Below, piece by piece: positions 1,688 to 63,207 of a DNA stretch of 64,000 nt. The position numbers and the translations under genes are program-made. Origin of the DNA: an uncultured cyanobacterium (lineage in GTDB: Bacteria > Cyanobacteriota > Cyanobacteriia > CAKZMO01); NCBI GenBank assembly GCA_963719515.1, contig CAVRCJ010000010.1:224001-288000 (forward strand). The letters run 5' to 3'. Below the pieces are notes generated by a model, which was given only the letters and a program-made list of their open reading frames with translations, was not told the origin of the DNA and did no database searches. Position 1 is the first letter of the stretch, and the number at the start of each line of letters is the position of its first letter.

Positions 1688-2122
1688 GCATGGCGTTAGA
1701 CTGCGGAGGTCTGTGAGAGTGCTTAGCCGCGATGGCCCCCTGTCGAAAAGCGATCGCCGCCCTATAAGTTAAGGGACACAGCCGCGCTGCCTTCCTAGCT
1801 CAGCCGTCCCTTTAATATCTATCCAACATCGCTTTTCAAACATAGACGGATTCTTGGCAGGGCTCTACCGACGCCTACGGAGACTTAAGCTTTTTCTCAA
1901 AAAGCGTCACCTCTCCAGGAACCTATTGCTGATTTATACGTCTAATCACTTAGAGCTTCTGGTGTTTTTTGTTGCTGATAGCGCTTCAGTAATAGAGCGA
2001 CGGCACAATCTACGGGGTTCACGCTCAATCTATGCCGAGAGCTAACGGTTTTGCCGCTTGGCTAGATATGCGAAAGGGGATGCACGCCACTCATCAACAT
2101 ATCCATGTTTAAAGGAGAGGCC

Positions 2123-5100
2123 ATGGCCCTGATTACAGTAACCACCGCAGCGAATTCTGGCTCCGGTTCCTTGAGAGAAGCGATCGCCAGCGCCAGCAGC
2201 GGCGATACCGTTGCTTTTTCCTCCGAGCTTGCCAACAAAACCATTCGCCTTGACGAACAGCTCGTCATCGACAAGGACATCACCCTCGACGGGGCAGCCG
2301 CACCCAATCTCACTCTCAGCGGCGAGGACAAGACTCGAATCCTACACGTCGACTACAGCTACGTCGACGTCGTCGTCCGCAACCTCACCTTTGCCAACGG
2401 CCGCGCCGCCGACAGCGACCCCAACAAAACTCAACAGGGCGGGGCCATCGAGCTGCGGGGTCCCAACACCCTAGTCGTCGAAAACTCTCGCTTCATCAAC
2501 AACTCGGCTGAGCGGGGCGGCGCGATTCACGTCGGCTATGGCGCTAGCGCTACCGTCGTAGGTAGCGAGTTCGACGGCAACGATGGCTCTCTCGCCAACG
2601 ACGGCTTCAGCGCCGGGGCGATCTCCACCCAAGGCGGGGGCGAGGGGGCAAAAGTCGTCAATACCAATGGCGATCGCAACGTTGGCGGAGAGGCATTTCT
2701 CGACATTCGTGACTCCACCTTCACCAACAACAAGGGCTCCTACGGCGCAGTCTATACGCTACTGGGCGGACTGCGGGTAGAAGACTCTGTCTTCCGCAAC
2801 AATGAGGGCACCAGGGGAGCGGGCGCTATCTTCACCGATGGGGCTAACGGCACTGAGAGAGCTGATAACCTCGGCGGCACGACGCTCATCCGCAACGTCA
2901 TCGCCGAGAACAATACGGGCGGCGGTGACTACGGCGGTGCGTTTTTCCTCTACGGCTACTCCGGCGACAAGTACATCATTGAGAACACGCAGGTCATCGG
3001 CAACGAGGCGCGGCGGGGCGGCGGCATCGGGGTTCAGTCGGCCCGCGACGAAGACAACGGCGTCGAGCTAATCATTCGCGATTCTGTCATTGCAGACAAT
3101 ACGGCCTCCTCCCAGGGCGGCGGCCTCTGGACCGACGTCAAGGGCGGCGTCACTATCGAAGACTCTACCTTTGACGGCAACCGCGTTTCTACCTCTGATG
3201 GCAAAGGCGACATCGGCGGGGCGATCGTCCTCAATACTCCTGAGTCAGCCGAGTCAACAATTACCAACACAACCTTCACCGATAACTACGCCGATCGCCA
3301 GTCGGGCAACATCTGGATCGGGGGTAAAAATAAGGCGGAGAATCTCACTGTCGAGGACTCTAGTTTTGCGGGTAACCGCGCTGGCAGCAGAGATACCGAA
3401 AACACCGTCAACTTTGAGGTTAAAGACGGGGGAGGAAATATTGTTCAAGGTTCCACTGGTGTGGACGGCGGACTTCCCGGTGCGACGCTGGTAGAAGAGC
3501 TACAGCTTGAGCCTACTCCTAATTCTGATAGTGGTTCGGACAGCGATGGGGAAGATCTCGCTACAGATAGCCCCCCACCTGAAGAACCGGCGGGCCCTGA
3601 TCCCGTGGTGGAGCAGCCCAAGTCCGAGCCAACCATTGAAGCGGAGTTGCCTACCGTAGAAGAGCAGCCCGAGCCTGTTGCTGAAGAGCCCGTAGCTAAA
3701 GAGCAGCCTAAACCTGAGCCAACCATCGAAGCAGAGTTGCCTACCGTAGAAGAGCAGCCCGAGCCTGTTGCTGAAGAGCCCGCAGCTAAAGAGCAGCCTA
3801 AACCTGAGCCAACCATTGAAGCGGAGCCGCCTACCGTAGAAGAGCAGCCCGAGCCTATGGCTGAAGAGCCCGTAGCTAAAGAGCAGCCTAAACTTGAGCC
3901 AACCATCGAAGCGGAGTCGCCTACCGTAGAAGAGCAGCCCGAGCCTGTTGCTGAAGAGCCCGCAGCTAAAGAGCAGCCTAAACCTAAGCCCGAGCCAACC
4001 ATTGAAGCGGAGCCGCCTATCGCAGAAGAGCAGCCCGAGCCTATGGCTGAAGAGCCCGTAGCTAAAGAGCAGCCCAAACTTAAGCCCGAGCCAACCATCG
4101 AAGCGGAGCCGCCTACCGTAGAAGAGCAGCCTGAGCCTAAAATGCTTGAGGTTAACCCTGAGCTGGTTCTTGACGCTGAGGACCCTGCGCCAACCCCCGC
4201 GCCTGATCTTACAGATGAGCCAGAGCCGACCCTGAGTTCTCCGGACGTTGTAGACCCTCAGCCCGCAAATCCTCAACCCATAGCTCCGCAGCCCGCTCCA
4301 AACCCGCTTCCAACCGGGCAAAGCCCCACTTCAGAGCCCGAATCTCCAGAATCAATAGAGCCGATCCGTTTCGATGCGGAAGACCTTACCCTCAAAGGCT
4401 ACCGGCTGCGCAATGAGGGCAATAATCCTGATAACCGTATTGCTACGCTCAAAAGCGGGAACAGAATCGGTAAGGCGAAGGGCGTGTTTGACGGGCCAGC
4501 AGGGACCTACCAAATTAAGCTAGGCTACTTCGACGAGAGCGATGGACAGGGTTCCTTTAAGGTGAAGGTGGCCGGGAACTCAGAATTCTTCGAACTTGAT
4601 GAGGATTTACCCTCTAAGGCTCCTAACGCCCGCTCCAAAACGGAGCGCATTACCCATGAAGCCATCGATCTTGAGCCAGGCGATCGCTTTTTGATTCGAG
4701 GCAAGCGTGGCGGAAACGAATTTGCCCGCTTCGACTATATTGAGTTCAGCCCTGTAGAGGCAAATCCACAAGCTCCCCAAAGCTCCCCTAACTCAGCTTC
4801 ATACGCCGCTGGGGGACTTGTAGACCTGCGTAGCGTTGACTACGACGCCGACGGCATCCCTGATGAGCAGGTCTCACTTAGCCTTGGTGATATCACGAGC
4901 TTTGCCCGCTACGATAACTCCGGTGGCTTTTACCGAGCAGAGCGGCGCAGCGGCGCAGTCCGAGATCCTCTGACAGATGAGCTAGTTCGCCCTGGACAAA
5001 AGGGCTATGCGGAGGCGGCGCTGAAGCAGCGGGTGAGCGGGCTTTCGTTCCAGGCCGAGGATGGTCAAGTGAGCAGTAAGGTCGAGACCGGAGCATTTCT

Positions 5101-59687: not shown

Positions 59688-60365
59688 CTAGCCTGTATAG
59701 GCTGTGGCGATGGTATCCACGAAGATGTTCTTCGCGTAGGGGAGTCGTCCAGGATTGTCGCGGGGTTCGGCTTTGTAGCCCACAGGCACCACAACGGCGA
59801 TCGCCAGGTCGGTGCCCTCAGCGCCAATCACGCTCATCACCTTGTCTTCGACCCAGCCATTCATAAAGCAGGTAGATAGACCCAGGCTCTCCGCCGCTAA
59901 GGTCAGCTGAGTGGCGGCAATCATGGCATCCTTGACGGCAAACTCACGGTTTTTCGCCCCTAGGTTTTCCTGAAATTGGGGAATAGTCTTTTTGAAATAG
60001 TTGACCGTCCCCTCGCTCCAAGCGCCGCGCTCTAGCGCCTCGCTGTAGATCTTTTCCATGGTCTCTTCGTCCTTCCAGGCGTAGGGCGCTGCCGCGAATA
60101 CGAAGGTAACGGGCGCTTGGGTAATCATCTCTTGATTAAAGGCTGCCTCACAGAGGGCTTTCTTTTTCTCTTCGCTCTGTACCAAAACGATGCGCCAGTC
60201 TTGGAGGTTCCAGCTGCTAGGCGCAGCAACGGTGAGATCGACGAGCTGTTTTAAAAGATCGTCTGGAATTGGGTCGCTGGCGAAACTCTTGATGGAGCGG
60301 CGATTGGCGATCGCCGTGGGCACGTCCAGCGGAGTTGCGCGTCGATCTTCAGCAGATAGGGTCAT
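59688..60365 (-). CDS. Nitroreductase family protein
   Basis: RRSIKSF, APSSWNLQDW, LAAESLGLSTC. Confidence 0.92.
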   Translation of the reverse strand: MTLSAEDRRATPLDVPTAIANRRSIKSFASDPIPDDLLKQLVDLTVAAPSSWNLQDWRIVLVQSEEKKKALCEAAFNQEMITQAPVTFVFAAAPYAWKDEETMEKIYSEALERGAWSEGTVNYFKKTIPQFQENLGAKNREFAVKDAMIAATQLTLAAESLGLSTCFMNGWVEDKVMSVIGAEGTDLAIAVVVPVGYKAEPRDNPGRLPYAKNIFVDTIATAYTG

Positions 60366-60483
60366 GGGTATTTCCTTTGCGGTGACTCGCTTAGGATTCT
60401 AGACAATTTTTTGCGGGGCGGCATATTCTTTAGGCAGCGCTGCGGCCTTTTTACCAAAAATCATGGGTCTAAAGCCCCGTCCT

Positions 60484-60624
60484 TCAGGACGGCTTCTCTA
60501 AATGTAGGCGATCTATCCAATCTTCTACCAGTTGAGTCATGGTCTTGTCCCTCTCTTTTGCAATCGCCCTAAGCTTTTGCAATCTTTTAATAGAGACTCT
60601 TAAATTAAGCTGTCCTTTTGCCAT
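60484..60624 (-). CDS. 46-aa ribbon-helix-helix (CopG/Arc-like) protein inside the IS, divergent from tnpB; not in the ORF track
   Basis: Manual translation MAKGQLNLRVSIKRLQKLRAIAKERDKTMTQLVEDWIDRLHLEKPS: alternating beta-strand QLNLRV, helix, turn, second helix. Confidence 0.75.
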   Translation of the reverse strand: MAKGQLNLRVSIKRLQKLRAIAKERDKTMTQLVEDWIDRLHLEKPS

Positions 60625-60667
60625 ACTGCCTACACAATGCCTACGCATCTATGCTAACATAAACAGT

Positions 60668-61792
60668 ATGAGAACATTGAAGTTTAAGATATACGAGCAC
60701 AAGCGGAACCGGCACCTAAAGCGCACTATTAATGCTGCTGGGGTGATTTGGAACCACTGCATTGCTCTCCACAAACGGTACTACCGTATGTGGGGCAAAC
60801 ACCTCAATTGCTCTAAACTTCAGTCTCATATTGCCAAGCTACGGAGGCGCAATCCGTTTTGGCAGTTGGTGGGGTCTCAGGCTGTGCAGGACATCTGCCA
60901 GCGAATTGAAAAGGCATACCAGCTGTTCTTTAAGCATCACGGCAAAGGCTATAGGCCGCCTAGCTTTCAGAAGGTAAGGCGATACAAGTCGTTCACCCTA
61001 AAACAGGCGGGATACAAGCTGCTCAATGGTGGTCGTATCAAGATAGGCAGCAGGGTCTACCAGTATTGGAATTCAAGGGAGATAGAGGGCAAGGTTAAGA
61101 CCGTCACGGTGAAGCGATCGCCTTTGGGTGAGCTGTTTTTAGCCGTTGTGGTGGACCAGGAAGCTGAACCAGTTCAAGGCATCGAGACGGGTAAAACCGC
61201 TGGTGCTGATTTTGGACTGAAGACGTTTCTCACTTTGTCAGATGGTACTCAAATCGAGTCTCCTGAATTCCTGAAAGCATCGCTCAAAGACCTTTGCCGA
61301 GCTAGCCGCAACCTATCGCGCAAGCGAAAAAAGTCGGCAAACTGGCACAGGGCAAGACTAAATCTAGCTCGCTGCCATGAGGCCATAGCCAATAGGCGAC
61401 GAGATTGGTTTTGGAAGCTTGCCCACCGGCTAACCGATACCTACGATGCGCTCTACTTTGAGACGCTGAACCTGAAAGGGATGCAGCGGCTATGGGGCCG
61501 GAAGATATCGGACCTAGCCCTAGCTGAATTTCTCGAAATCCTTCAGTGGGTGGCAAAGAAGAAAGGCAAGACCGTAGCATTCATCGACCAGTGGTATCCC
61601 AGCTCTAAAACTTGTAGCTGTTGTGGGCACGTACTGAAGGAGTTAGATCTAAAACAACGGCAGTGGGATTGCCCTATTTGCAACGAACATCACGATCGAG
61701 ACTTGAATGCTGCAATAAACATTCAACGGGTTGGGGCGTCAACCCGTGGGCTAGGCGATGTCAGACAGGCTCAGCCTGCGATCGCTGCTTGA
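60668..61792 (+). CDS. tnpB: RNA-guided endonuclease TnpB
   Basis: RuvC triad ADFGL / FETLNL / DRDLNAAINI, zinc finger CSCC...CPIC; start at MRTLKFK. Confidence 0.95.
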   Translation: MRTLKFKIYEHKRNRHLKRTINAAGVIWNHCIALHKRYYRMWGKHLNCSKLQSHIAKLRRRNPFWQLVGSQAVQDICQRIEKAYQLFFKHHGKGYRPPSFQKVRRYKSFTLKQAGYKLLNGGRIKIGSRVYQYWNSREIEGKVKTVTVKRSPLGELFLAVVVDQEAEPVQGIETGKTAGADFGLKTFLTLSDGTQIESPEFLKASLKDLCRASRNLSRKRKKSANWHRARLNLARCHEAIANRRRDWFWKLAHRLTDTYDALYFETLNLKGMQRLWGRKISDLALAEFLEILQWVAKKKGKTVAFIDQWYPSSKTCSCCGHVLKELDLKQRQWDCPICNEHHDRDLNAAINIQRVGASTRGLGDVRQAQPAIAA

Positions 61793-61850
61793 TTCCAGAA
61801 TCCCCGCTCTTCAGGGCGGGGAGTACGTCAAAATTACAGAGCGCGGATCC
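61640..61850 (+). ncRNA. Putative TnpB omega/reRNA (scaffold over the tnpB 3' end and right end; guide starts at 61832, AATTACAGAGCGCGGATCC); 5' boundary approximate
   Basis: Inferred from the established architecture of IS200/IS605 TnpB loci and the right-end hairpin ending in TCAA. Confidence 0.55.
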
Positions 61851-63207
61851 ACAGCTCCCGGGCCGCCTCTTGTGTCTCATGGACCAGCGCCTCTAAATCA
61901 AACCGGGTGAATTTTCCCTTCTCAATGACCCGCTCCCCGTCGATAACGCTGTAGCTCACCTGAGGCGGCTGACAGAACACCAGCGCGGCCACCGGGTCGT
62001 GGCACCCAGCAAAGGTGGGCTGGTCCAAATCAAAGGCAACAAAATCTGCCGCCAGTCCCGGTGCTAAGCACCCCACATCGTCGCGGCCCAGCACCTTGGC
62101 GCCGCCCAGAGTCGCCAGCTCTAGCGCCTGCCGCGCCGTCATAGCAGCGGCGTCTCCCTCGCGCACCCGCGCCAGCAAAAACGCCGTGCGGGCCTCGCTC
62201 AGCAGGTGGGTGGCGTCGTTGGATGCGGCCCCGTCTACCCCCAGCCCCACCGAGACACCCTGGTCGAGCATCTTGCGGATGGGGGCAATGCCGCTGGCCA
62301 GTCGGCAGTTGCTGCAGGGGCAGTGGGCCACCCCCGTACCCGTGCGGGCGAATTTCTCGATGCTGCGATCGCTCAGCTGCACGCAGTGGGCGTGCCACAC
62401 ATCTTCTCCGACCCAGCCCACCGACTCTGCATAATCTCCGGGGGTAAGGCCAAACTTCTCTTGGCTATAGGCCACATCTCCCAAGCTCTCTGCCAAATGG
62501 GTATGCAGACGCACCTGGTCGTAGCTCCGGGCTAGGGCCGCTGACTCTCGCATCAGGTCTTGGGAAACTGAAAACGGAGAGCAGGGGGCTAGCACGATGC
62601 GCAGCATGGCGCAGGGGGCGCTGTCGTGGTACTGATCAATCAGCCGCTGGCTGTCTTTGAGAATATCGGCCTCATTCTCCACCACCGAATCTGGCGGCAG
62701 GCCGCCTTGGCTTTGCCCGACGCTCATGCTGCCCCGGCTGGCGTGAAAGCGCAGCCCCATCTCCTGCACGGCGCGAATCTCATCGTCTAGCCTGCAGTCG
62801 TTGGGGAAGATATAGAGGTGGTCGCTGGCGGTGGTGCAGCCCGAGAGCATCAGCTCGGCGGCGGCCATCTGGGCGCTGACGGCGATATCGCTGGCGGTAA
62901 GATGGGCCCAAATGGGGTAAAGACCCTGTAGCCAGGAAAACAGATCGCCGTCTTGCACCGCCGGCACCGCGCGGGTGAGGGTCTGGTAAAAGTGGTGGTG
63001 GGTGTTGATCAGTCCGGGAAGCACAAGGTGGCGATCGCCTAAATCCAGTACCTCATCGGCCTGGTCCGCCATCGCGGCTAGCGCCGCCGTGGTTCCCACC
63101 TGCTCAATCACGTTGTCGCGCAGAAAGAGCGCCCCGTGGCGAATTTCCTCGCGATCGCGGTTCATCGTGACGAGGGTATGGATGTTTTGCACTAGGCAGG
63201 TCGTCAT
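61834..63207 (-). CDS. 8-oxoguanine deaminase-like amidohydrolase
   Basis: NTHHHFYQTLTR, APCSPFSV, HTHLAE, AHCPCSN, GVDGAASND. Confidence 0.9.
   Translation of the reverse strand: MTTCLVQNIHTLVTMNRDREEIRHGALFLRDNVIEQVGTTAALAAMADQADEVLDLGDRHLVLPGLINTHHHFYQTLTRAVPAVQDGDLFSWLQGLYPIWAHLTASDIAVSAQMAAAELMLSGCTTASDHLYIFPNDCRLDDEIRAVQEMGLRFHASRGSMSVGQSQGGLPPDSVVENEADILKDSQRLIDQYHDSAPCAMLRIVLAPCSPFSVSQDLMRESAALARSYDQVRLHTHLAESLGDVAYSQEKFGLTPGDYAESVGWVGEDVWHAHCVQLSDRSIEKFARTGTGVAHCPCSNCRLASGIAPIRKMLDQGVSVGLGVDGAASNDATHLLSEARTAFLLARVREGDAAAMTARQALELATLGGAKVLGRDDVGCLAPGLAADFVAFDLDQPTFAGCHDPVAALVFCQPPQVSYSVIDGERVIEKGKFTRFDLEALVHETQEAARELWIRAL

Follow-up and report, generated by a model that had tools for sequence, protein, structure and literature searches.

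Small ribbon-helix-helix (RHH) genes embedded in transposons that encode the RNA-guided nuclease TnpB were first noted, as 'Arc-like' open reading frames (ORFs), in a study of IStrons (Zedaveinyte et al., bioRxiv 10.1101/2023.11.20.567912), and the function of the Arc proteins has been tested subsequently (Moon, Zedaveinyte, Wiegand and Sternberg, October 2026 preprint, bioRxiv 10.64898/2026.09.24.754181). In particular, Arc proteins of IS605 elements bind the intergenic promoter, as judged from peaks in chromatin immunoprecipitation sequencing (ChIP-seq), and lower the output of a reporter driven by the tnpB promoter; this repression is lost upon mutation of Arc residues 5, 7 and 9 or of the DNA motif (bioRxiv 10.64898/2026.09.24.754181). 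The published Arc set, collected by PSI-BLAST from WP_003367503.1 / WP_094548610.1, consists of 8,024 proteins and includes elements with arc and tnpB alone (bioRxiv 10.64898/2026.09.24.754181). Here we describe a related arrangement in a 64,000-nucleotide stretch of contig CAVRCJ010000010.1 from an uncultured cyanobacterium (hereafter, the window). An IS200/IS605-family element of 1377 bp (60455-61831) that encodes TnpB and lacks tnpA carries, in the tnpA slot, a divergent gene for a 46-residue Arc-like RHH protein. We estimate a probability of about 0.78 that this protein, as the sequence analysis suggests, is an autoregulated repressor of tnpB.

The similarity to the Arc systems of IS605 elements and IStrons extends over several features. 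In both cases, a tiny RHH gene is located inside the element in divergent orientation to tnpB, with sequence motifs in the two-way intergenic promoter; residues 5, 7 and 9 are the predicted DNA contacts of the Arc proteins, and residues 5 and 7 co-vary with the putative operator in the family described here; and some Arc proteins are 50 amino acids (aa) or shorter and have been overlooked by annotation (Moon et al.). The differences are also clear. The tested Arc systems named in the preprint are clostridial (P. xylanilyticum and C. botulinum), and the string 'cyanobacteri' is absent from the main text of that preprint; in the main published architecture arc is found alongside tnpA, whereas RHH and tnpA genes occur together in none of the 75 loci analyzed here (0/75); and the window family is nearest to Pfam DUF6364, not to Arc (PF03869).

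Two other groups of systems are relevant. In the V-K CRISPR-associated transposons (CASTs) of cyanobacteria, genes for CvkR, Arc_1 or Arc_2 are located in reverse orientation before cas12k (2023, PMC9938897); both cvkR and cas12k are expressed on leaderless mRNAs, and several types of regulators have been recruited independently (PMC9938897). These transposons share with the window element the cyanobacterial hosts, the small reverse-oriented regulator and the leaderless nuclease mRNA (predicted in the present case) but differ in that the partner is Cas12k in a Tn7-like transposon and the regulator that has been studied is of the MerR type (PMC9938897). The MTQL and EDWID motifs of the window family were found 0 times in CAST Arc_1 and Arc_2 in five supplementary files of that article, in a motif look-up that is not a homology test. 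In archaea, small RHH genes also adjoin tnpB, and a toxin-antitoxin function has been proposed for these RHH/MazE-TnpB pairs (Altae-Tran et al. 2023, PMC10691335). In the archaeal pairs, tnpB is downstream of the RHH gene, the loci are immobile and the catalytic site is rearranged, whereas in the window the two genes are divergent, the element is present in nine fresh copies and the RuvC motifs are canonical (PMC10691335 for the archaeal loci).

The boundaries of the element were derived from the alignment of its nine copies in the same genome, which show 98-100% identity and sharp common ends in a genome search; the genes for the 374-aa TnpB and the 46-aa RHH protein are both intact in all nine (9/9). 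The target or transposon-adjacent motif (TAM) tetranucleotide directly 5' of the left end, located in the window at 60451..60454 on the forward strand, is TTAC in eight of the nine copies and TGAC in the remaining one. Otherwise, the flanks of the copies, including the right flanks, are unrelated, and none of them contains a target duplication. The left end (LE; 60455..60500, forward strand) starts at 60455, where the identity between the copies begins, and the right end (RE; 61757..61831, forward strand) terminates at 61831, with the last letters ...GTACGTCAA. Each end contains a subterminal imperfect hairpin with a TTCA loop, and there are no terminal inverted repeats. The LE hairpin (60472-60495), as read from the sequence, consists of a stem at 60477-60482/60487-60492 that is extended by 60472-60474/60493-60495 and encloses the loop at 60483-60486; the RE hairpin is at 61802-61821. 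The RE is presumed to form the 3' part of the guide (omega) RNA scaffold, a role that we assume from the known biology of IS200/IS605 TnpB. Rfam gives a weak, sub-threshold match to HgcC at 61757-61844 (E 0.02), and folding of the tnpB 3' end together with the RE yields no signal beyond that of shuffled sequences (z -1.31).

None of the nine copies contains a Y1 transposase; 14 Y1_Tnp matches are present elsewhere in the same genome. Because nine nearly identical, intact copies hold no Y1 transposase, the element is non-autonomous, as the original prediction maintained, and recently active. By its TnpB domains, its ends and the missing Y1 transposase, it is a tnpB-only (IS1341-like) form of the IS200/IS605 family. 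A mobilizing TnpA was not pinpointed among the Y1 matches of the genome; RE-like hairpins located elsewhere do not adjoin them.

The tnpB gene (60668..61792, forward strand) encodes a 374-aa RNA-guided nuclease with conserved RuvC motifs and a zinc ribbon. The Pfam matches to OrfB_IS605 (2.9e-24) and Cas12f1-like_TNB (1.1e-21) are both above the cut-offs, and the protein aligns over its full length with a solved ISDra2-type TnpB (chain 8bf8 E, E 1.1e-47). In the alignment to 8bf8, all three RuvC motifs keep their acidic residues, which we take to be the catalytic ones. Two of the copies, L008 (C10:496424-497808) and L009 (C5:45280-46667), have 3 and 7 amino-acid changes, respectively, clustered at TnpB residues 325-340, within or beside the zinc-ribbon (TNB) domain (287-352); this cluster is their sole difference from the other copies and looks like a gene-conversion patch, not scattered mutation.

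The RHH gene (60484..60624, minus strand, with an ATG start and a TGA stop) is nested in a 54-aa ORF at 60484..60648 that the ORF-listing program reports. Its stop codon (60484-60486) falls inside the TTCA loop of the LE hairpin, and the 3' arm of that hairpin provides the codons for the C-terminal EKPS; many relatives end in ...EEKPS, probably because the hairpin arm encodes their last residues. The original prediction had described a 46-aa minus-strand ORF at 60624-60484 with its stop in the LE hairpin, and all these coordinates are correct in the sequence. Relatives were identified using two peptide patterns and tblastn, with an alignment of two natural copies as the query: 152 relatives were confirmed by tblastn from 192 candidate stretches of species-representative genomes, and 79 loci were kept. 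Every named organism among these 79 loci is cyanobacterial, and two titles read 'uncultured bacterium'. A six-frame profile search of 301 genomes sampled from the phylum (G000 included) detects the RHH gene in 38 genomes and 26 of 134 genera, the highest number of matches in one genome being 23. In 69 of the 79 loci, the ORF begins with ATG and is 40 aa or longer; nine loci have no ATG near the expected start, several of these having GTG there, and in L040 the ORF is shortened to 23 aa.

The pattern of substitutions indicates that the 46-aa ORF is a real gene under purifying selection. The median ratio of nonsynonymous to synonymous substitution rates (dN/dS, Nei-Gojobori NG86 method) is 0.109 in the RHH frame, compared with 0.23-2.3 in the other five frames; this estimate comes from 66 unique 102-nucleotide (nt) cores and is limited to 420 unsaturated pairs, as synonymous sites have reached saturation in the majority of pairs. 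Entropy at codon positions 1, 2 and 3 is 0.75, 0.39 and 1.34, respectively, so that variation is mostly at third positions. We consider it extremely improbable that the ORF is not a gene and that its conservation reflects cis-acting LE DNA required for transposition. Such an explanation would fit the location of the ORF, which lies wholly in the subterminal LE region and has its last codons set by the hairpin, and the rarity with which gene callers predict it (a search of 5.8 billion protein clusters yields only 10 relatives, none with an informative name). Few database entries are typical of a 46-codon gene. What such an explanation fails to accommodate is the third-position variation together with a dN/dS of 0.11 that is confined to the RHH frame, the occurrence of the same protein on different left ends (the LE of L011 is like that of L010, not like that of the window) and with at least three TnpB clades, and the confident fold and dimer predictions.

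The small protein is predicted to be a ribbon-helix-helix homodimer, as the sequence pattern originally suggested. The AlphaFold2 model, based on a 35-sequence alignment (A2), has a mean predicted local distance difference test score (pLDDT) of 86 and consists of an extended N-terminus followed by helices at residues 12-25 and 29-39; the protein ends 7 residues past helix 2. The top rows of the Foldseek search are all RHH proteins, namely YiiF, CdbA, P22 Arc, CopG, ParG, RHH MazE and PutA. The homodimer model reaches a score of 0.54, compared with 0.00 for the best of three controls, with a pLDDT of 81 for the partner and at least 96% of the contacts in agreement between runs; in the benchmark, 20 of 30 proteins with structures solved as pairs attained the mark for a dimer, compared with 1 of 23 solved as single chains. 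In the model, the two N-terminal strands pair in antiparallel orientation, centred on residue 7. The dimer score may reflect likeness to known structures and not provide independent proof, because RHH dimers are well represented among solved structures. Among Pfam families, DUF6364 (PF19891) is matched by all 35 members of A2 (35/35) at E up to 0.1, with the best value of 2.3e-7, followed by CopG_antitoxin (18 members), RHH_1 (13 members) and TacA1; an Atlas cluster bearing PF03869 appears at rank 17 with a score of 0.91. The predicted fold is the same as that of P22 Arc, pMV158 CopG and plasmid omega, with root-mean-square deviations of 0.7 Å over 35 columns for Arc (1baz) and 0.8 Å over 36 columns for CopG (1ea4). 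Classical RHH repressors of this kind place two dimers on adjacent promoter sites and regulate their own expression, which is the same logic as the one proposed here. The differences are that the window protein shows no detectable sequence relationship to these repressors, the sites are direct repeats and not an inverted operator, and the context is an insertion sequence (IS).

The replacement of tnpA by the RHH gene, a key part of the original prediction, is illustrated by another locus of the same genome, L010, where a tnpB relative with 82% identity is accompanied by a divergent Y1 tnpA that starts 41 bp from the tnpB ATG. The TATGCTAACATA box is common to the tnpA-tnpB spacer of L010 and the window element. 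The possibility that the RHH gene is a fragment of tnpA was considered and rejected: BLASTP against the L010 TnpA gives no alignment at E up to 100, and because there is no such similarity the RHH protein is not a TnpA fragment. Among 80 close relatives of the window tnpB, 75 either extend 200 nt or more upstream or show a detectable gene there. In this set, the slot upstream of tnpB is occupied by the RHH gene in 22 loci and by Y1 TnpA in 15, whereas no locus has both and 38 have neither. Of the last group, by our own reading, 16 loci contain another small RHH subfamily (intact in 10) that matches RHH_1 (2.8e-6, above the cut-off) as well as the NikA-like and TraY families of Pfam, and is 19% identical to A2 at an hhalign probability of 92%. 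Four more loci of this group have an ORF of 70-72 aa without a Pfam match (MNKDELISY...; L118, at 1246-1455 on the minus strand, L143, L144 and L145), and this conserved ORF may represent a third kind of small regulator. The remaining 18 loci lack such an ORF, and in at least 7 of these an LE-type hairpin is located directly upstream. Altogether, by the same reading and for close tnpB relatives, the slot is occupied by a small DNA-binding gene in approximately 42 of 75 loci vs tnpA in 15 of 75.

The linkage between the RHH gene and tnpB, for which a tblastn survey had been proposed, is apparent in the reciprocal comparison as well. Starting from the 79 RHH loci, tblastn detects a divergent tnpB in 50, of which 36 belong to the TnpB clade of the window (21 full-length) and 14 to a clade with only 27-49% identity; Pfam adds five loci with a divergent OrfB_IS605 ORF or its N-terminal domain (L040, L084, L091, L102 and L108). 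Thus, the RHH gene is joined to several TnpB lineages (at least three clades) and to different left ends; in particular, L011 and the autonomous L010 have left ends with 97% identity.

The divergent control region (60625..60667) comprises the 43 bp between the start codons of the RHH gene and tnpB, and in most relatives the spacer is about 39-47 bp long. It contains two putative operator repeats, both TGCCTAC, at 60627..60633 and 60638..60644, the second being 11 bp from the first, and an extended -10 element for tnpB, TGcTAACAT (60652..60660, forward strand). The spacer, the repeats and the -10 element are all present at the positions assigned to them in the original prediction. A possible -10 element for the RHH gene, TGtTAGCAT, is read on the minus strand at 60651-60659. 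In the 5.28-Mb genome, the pattern TGCCTAC-N4-TGCCTAC occurs nine times, once per copy of the element, and the reversed control pattern occurs 0 times. When spacings of 10, 11 and 12 bp were allowed in 70 spacers (those of the window, of L011 and of 68 loci), the 11-bp-spaced direct repeat by the RHH start was the best-scoring one in 69.

The sequence of the repeats varies by lineage, and both copies change together, in step with residues 5 and 7 of the predicted beta-strand. CTACCC-type repeats accompany the residues R/S in 40 loci and R/N in three loci, among which the second repeat of L108 deviates (CTGCACA). The ATCTACA repeats are found with G/N (19 loci), the GCCTAC repeats with Q/N (one locus, the window), the ATGTGC/TGCAC-type repeats with N/T (2 loci) and the GTATAGG-type repeats with P/S (2 loci). 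These counts are descriptive and carry no statistical test, the lineages being related.

Of the 70 spacers, 55 have a forward TG-extended -10 element directly behind the repeats, at the same offset, and in 33 of the 70 a near-palindromic box yields an overlapping reverse extended -10 element. In 67 of 78 tnpB-anchored loci, a TAnnnT hexamer is located 6-7 nt before the tnpB ATG, whatever fills the slot; TG precedes this hexamer in 40 of 78, and a Shine-Dalgarno (SD)-like motif is found in 1 of 78. Hence the near-leaderless placement of the -10 element that was originally read from the window alone is a clade-wide feature. Because the -10 element is so close to the ATG and an SD-like motif is found in a single locus, the tnpB mRNA is probably leaderless throughout the clade.

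From these sequence features we infer the following scheme, which comprises binding of the RHH protein to DNA, repression of tnpB, regulation of the RHH gene by its own product, buffering against copy number and the positions of the transcription starts. Two RHH dimers would bind side by side, on one helix face, to the TGCCTAC repeats at 60627-60644, the spacing of 11 bp being one turn. The repeats would span approximately positions -41 to -24 of the tnpB promoter with the extended -10 element at 60652-60660, and tnpB transcription would start at its ATG or 1 nt before it. For the RHH gene, the repeats would fall within the short leader of its mRNA, downstream of a -10 element in the same near-palindromic box, with a predicted start near 60640-60650. 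Binding of the RHH protein would then lower the expression of tnpB, of the guide RNA derived from the tnpB 3' end and of the RHH gene itself. Because a diffusible RHH protein would act in trans on nine identical operators, the output of nuclease and guide would be kept low and buffered against copy number. Mobility would have to be supplied by a Y1 TnpA encoded elsewhere in the genome. This repression model agrees with the measured behaviour of other IS605 Arc proteins (Moon et al.).

The positions of the repeats are also those of a class II activator site, so that the RHH protein might be an activator or a dual regulator that, when bound at about -41 to -24, brings RNA polymerase to tnpB and represses its own gene. 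The -35 region (TACACA) is a poor match to the consensus, a simple scan does not call the promoter self-sufficient, and RHH activators are known, for example AlgZ (cited in Moon et al.). We nevertheless regard activation as quite improbable. The tested IS605 Arc proteins repress (Moon et al.). Furthermore, relatives that have only the LE and no regulator gene retain the same -10 geometry, and the TG-extended -10 element is conserved in 40 of 78 loci. Promoters with a TG-extended -10 element do not need a -35 element.

Repression of transcription is also to be weighed against a role at the level of protein or transposition, in which the RHH protein would be an antitoxin-like inhibitor of TnpB (or of its RNA complex) or a TraY/NikA-like helper of the trans-acting Y1 TnpA at the LE. 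An interaction of Arc with the TnpB-RNA complex is a proposal mentioned by Moon et al., and the toxin-antitoxin function put forward for the archaeal RHH/MazE-TnpB pairs (PMC10691335) points in the same direction. The matches of the second RHH subfamily to NikA-like and TraY, the overlap of the RHH gene with the LE hairpin and the presence of a MazF-like gene beside one relative would be compatible with such a role, which, however, appears unlikely. The RHH gene and tnpB are divergent and form no operon; there is no toxin-binding tail, given that the protein ends 7 residues past helix 2 and these residues are dictated by the hairpin DNA. Accordingly, neither of the features used to recognize type II toxin-antitoxin systems, a co-directional operon and a C-terminal toxin-binding extension, is found in the RHH-tnpB pair. 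In addition, tnpB keeps the canonical acidic RuvC motifs, the repeats are at the promoter, approximately 130 bp from the hairpin, and their co-variation with the beta-strand residues fits a protein that reads DNA.

Several observations weigh against the assignment of the RHH protein as an autoregulated repressor of tnpB. With regard to the protein, Foldseek finds no match at E <=0.001 and every E-value is >0.3, which is attributable to the chain being so short; the window protein is below the Pfam curated cut-offs (18.8 bits for DUF6364 vs the gathering threshold of 27.3); the family profile finds nothing among the PDB sequences at E up to 10; and Pfam Arc (PF03869) is matched neither by the window protein nor by any of the 35 members. 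The loci used for dN/dS were chosen by peptide patterns and tblastn, a procedure that favours a conserved protein and inflates conservation; this selection bias does not account for the frame-specific third-position pattern. With regard to the DNA, the repeats are direct and contain no internal palindrome, in contrast to the symmetry of RHH dimers, and a simple sigma-70 scan (two hexamers, 9/12 matches) does not call the proposed tnpB promoter, so that the case for this promoter is the TG extension and its conservation across the relatives. Finally, the RHH gene adjoins a broken or partial tnpB in 15 of the 36 near-clade loci (some of them ended by contig ends), is present in approximately 17-19 short elements without tnpB and, in L066, is divergent to a gene for a 168-aa PemK/MazF-like toxin (2441-2944, minus strand; Pfam 5.2e-23) and not to tnpB. 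Given that the RHH gene is found without tnpB, beside a MazF-like gene and beside broken tnpB genes, its role may not be tied only to tnpB.

Beyond repression of tnpB in a single element, it is conceivable, if doubtful, that the tnpA slot of cyanobacterial TnpB elements is a swap site for private, copy-number-sensing repressors. This idea stems from the occupation of the slot by at least two RHH subfamilies that are 19% identical and by an unrelated 70-aa ORF; as part of it, the beta-strand residues and the operators may have diversified jointly into separate specificities within one subfamily. If so, co-resident elements would each be throttled only by their own repressor. The derivatives of 0.55-0.7 kb, in which tnpB has been lost but RHH gene, operator and promoter are retained, could be extra sources of repressor or RNA-only cassettes on a regulated promoter. 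The layout upstream of cas12k in the cyanobacterial CRISPR-associated transposons could then be inherited from such TnpB ancestors and would not have arisen afresh.

Short elements of approximately 0.66-0.69 kb were observed in Scytonema, Nostoc, Calothrix and others (L076, L081-L083, L086-L089, L096-L100, L104, L106, L107 and L109). They consist of an RHH gene of this family (52-63 aa), ATCTACA repeats, a -10 box and approximately 380 bp of non-coding sequence in the position of tnpB; in one pair, taken from records of two species, the identity is 98% over 664 bp. Rfam finds no match in three of the mini-element loci, folding of the region past the promoter in a mini-element gives no signal beyond shuffled sequences (z -0.88), and the non-coding part of the mini-element, a conceivable guide-RNA cassette, when searched in its own genome, has only partial, heterogeneous matches. 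As tblastn of TnpB on the mini-elements returns only an 18-residue match (E 0.09), they are not simply frameshifted tnpB copies. The genome of the window contains a single-copy element of this kind of approximately 0.55 kb, L011:1440-1975 (C6:326337-326872), which has no tnpB and comprises an intact 44-aa RHH homologue approximately 70% identical to that of the window, 11-bp-spaced ATGTGC repeats, the TGCTAGCAT box, a non-coding stretch of approximately 300 bp and a right end. In the same genome, pairs of LE and RE hairpins of the L010/L011 type are located approximately 0.41 kb apart (e.g. C15:130874-131296, C14:161643-162055, C5:165974-166383 and C3:471430-471841) or approximately 1.35 kb apart (e.g. 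C3:816970-818329), which suggests miniature inverted-repeat transposable element (MITE)-like and tnpB-only derivatives of the autonomous IS of L010.

A second multi-copy TnpB element, unrelated to the first, is present in the same genome, with a tnpB that is 32% identical to that of the window. In L190, for example, a 60-aa RHH protein of the other (A3-type) subfamily is encoded in the divergent slot (1951-2133, minus strand) next to tnpB (approximately 2160-3363, forward strand). There are 21 matches to this family among those listed, at least 16 of them with nearly equal scores. Thus, the genome harbours two RHH-bearing TnpB IS families, with 9-10 and approximately 21 copies of the RHH gene. 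As for the immediate surroundings of the window element, it sits between a nitroreductase-family gene (59688-60365, minus strand) and an amidohydrolase-family gene (61834-63207, minus strand), and only 3 bp separate its RE from the amidohydrolase stop codon.

As this arrangement was already known from other bacteria, where it has also been tested, the window element is a new example and not a new principle. The new details are the exclusion of tnpA, the co-varying operator and reader residues, the near-palindromic -10 box common to both genes together with a leaderless tnpB (as predicted), the end of the ORF in the LE hairpin, the tnpB-less derivatives and the presence of two such IS families in one genome. 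The literature search retrieved no description of this cyanobacterial RHH family, of its mutual exclusion with tnpA or of the RHH-only short elements; the supplementary tables of both bioRxiv papers, which were outside the search, may list the family.

The picture of how such elements work is unchanged by these findings, and a large cyanobacterial family is added to the Arc-type brakes of TnpB transposons. Because small DNA-binding genes outnumber tnpA in the slot among close relatives of this tnpB, many 'tnpB-only' IS are really two-gene elements in which the second gene has been missed by annotation. The natural pairs of residues and repeats are a ready set for studying how RHH proteins read DNA and could yield repressors and operators as small orthogonal parts for use in cyanobacteria, and the regulated leaderless promoter, if the prediction is correct, would be relevant to the users of compact nucleases as tools.

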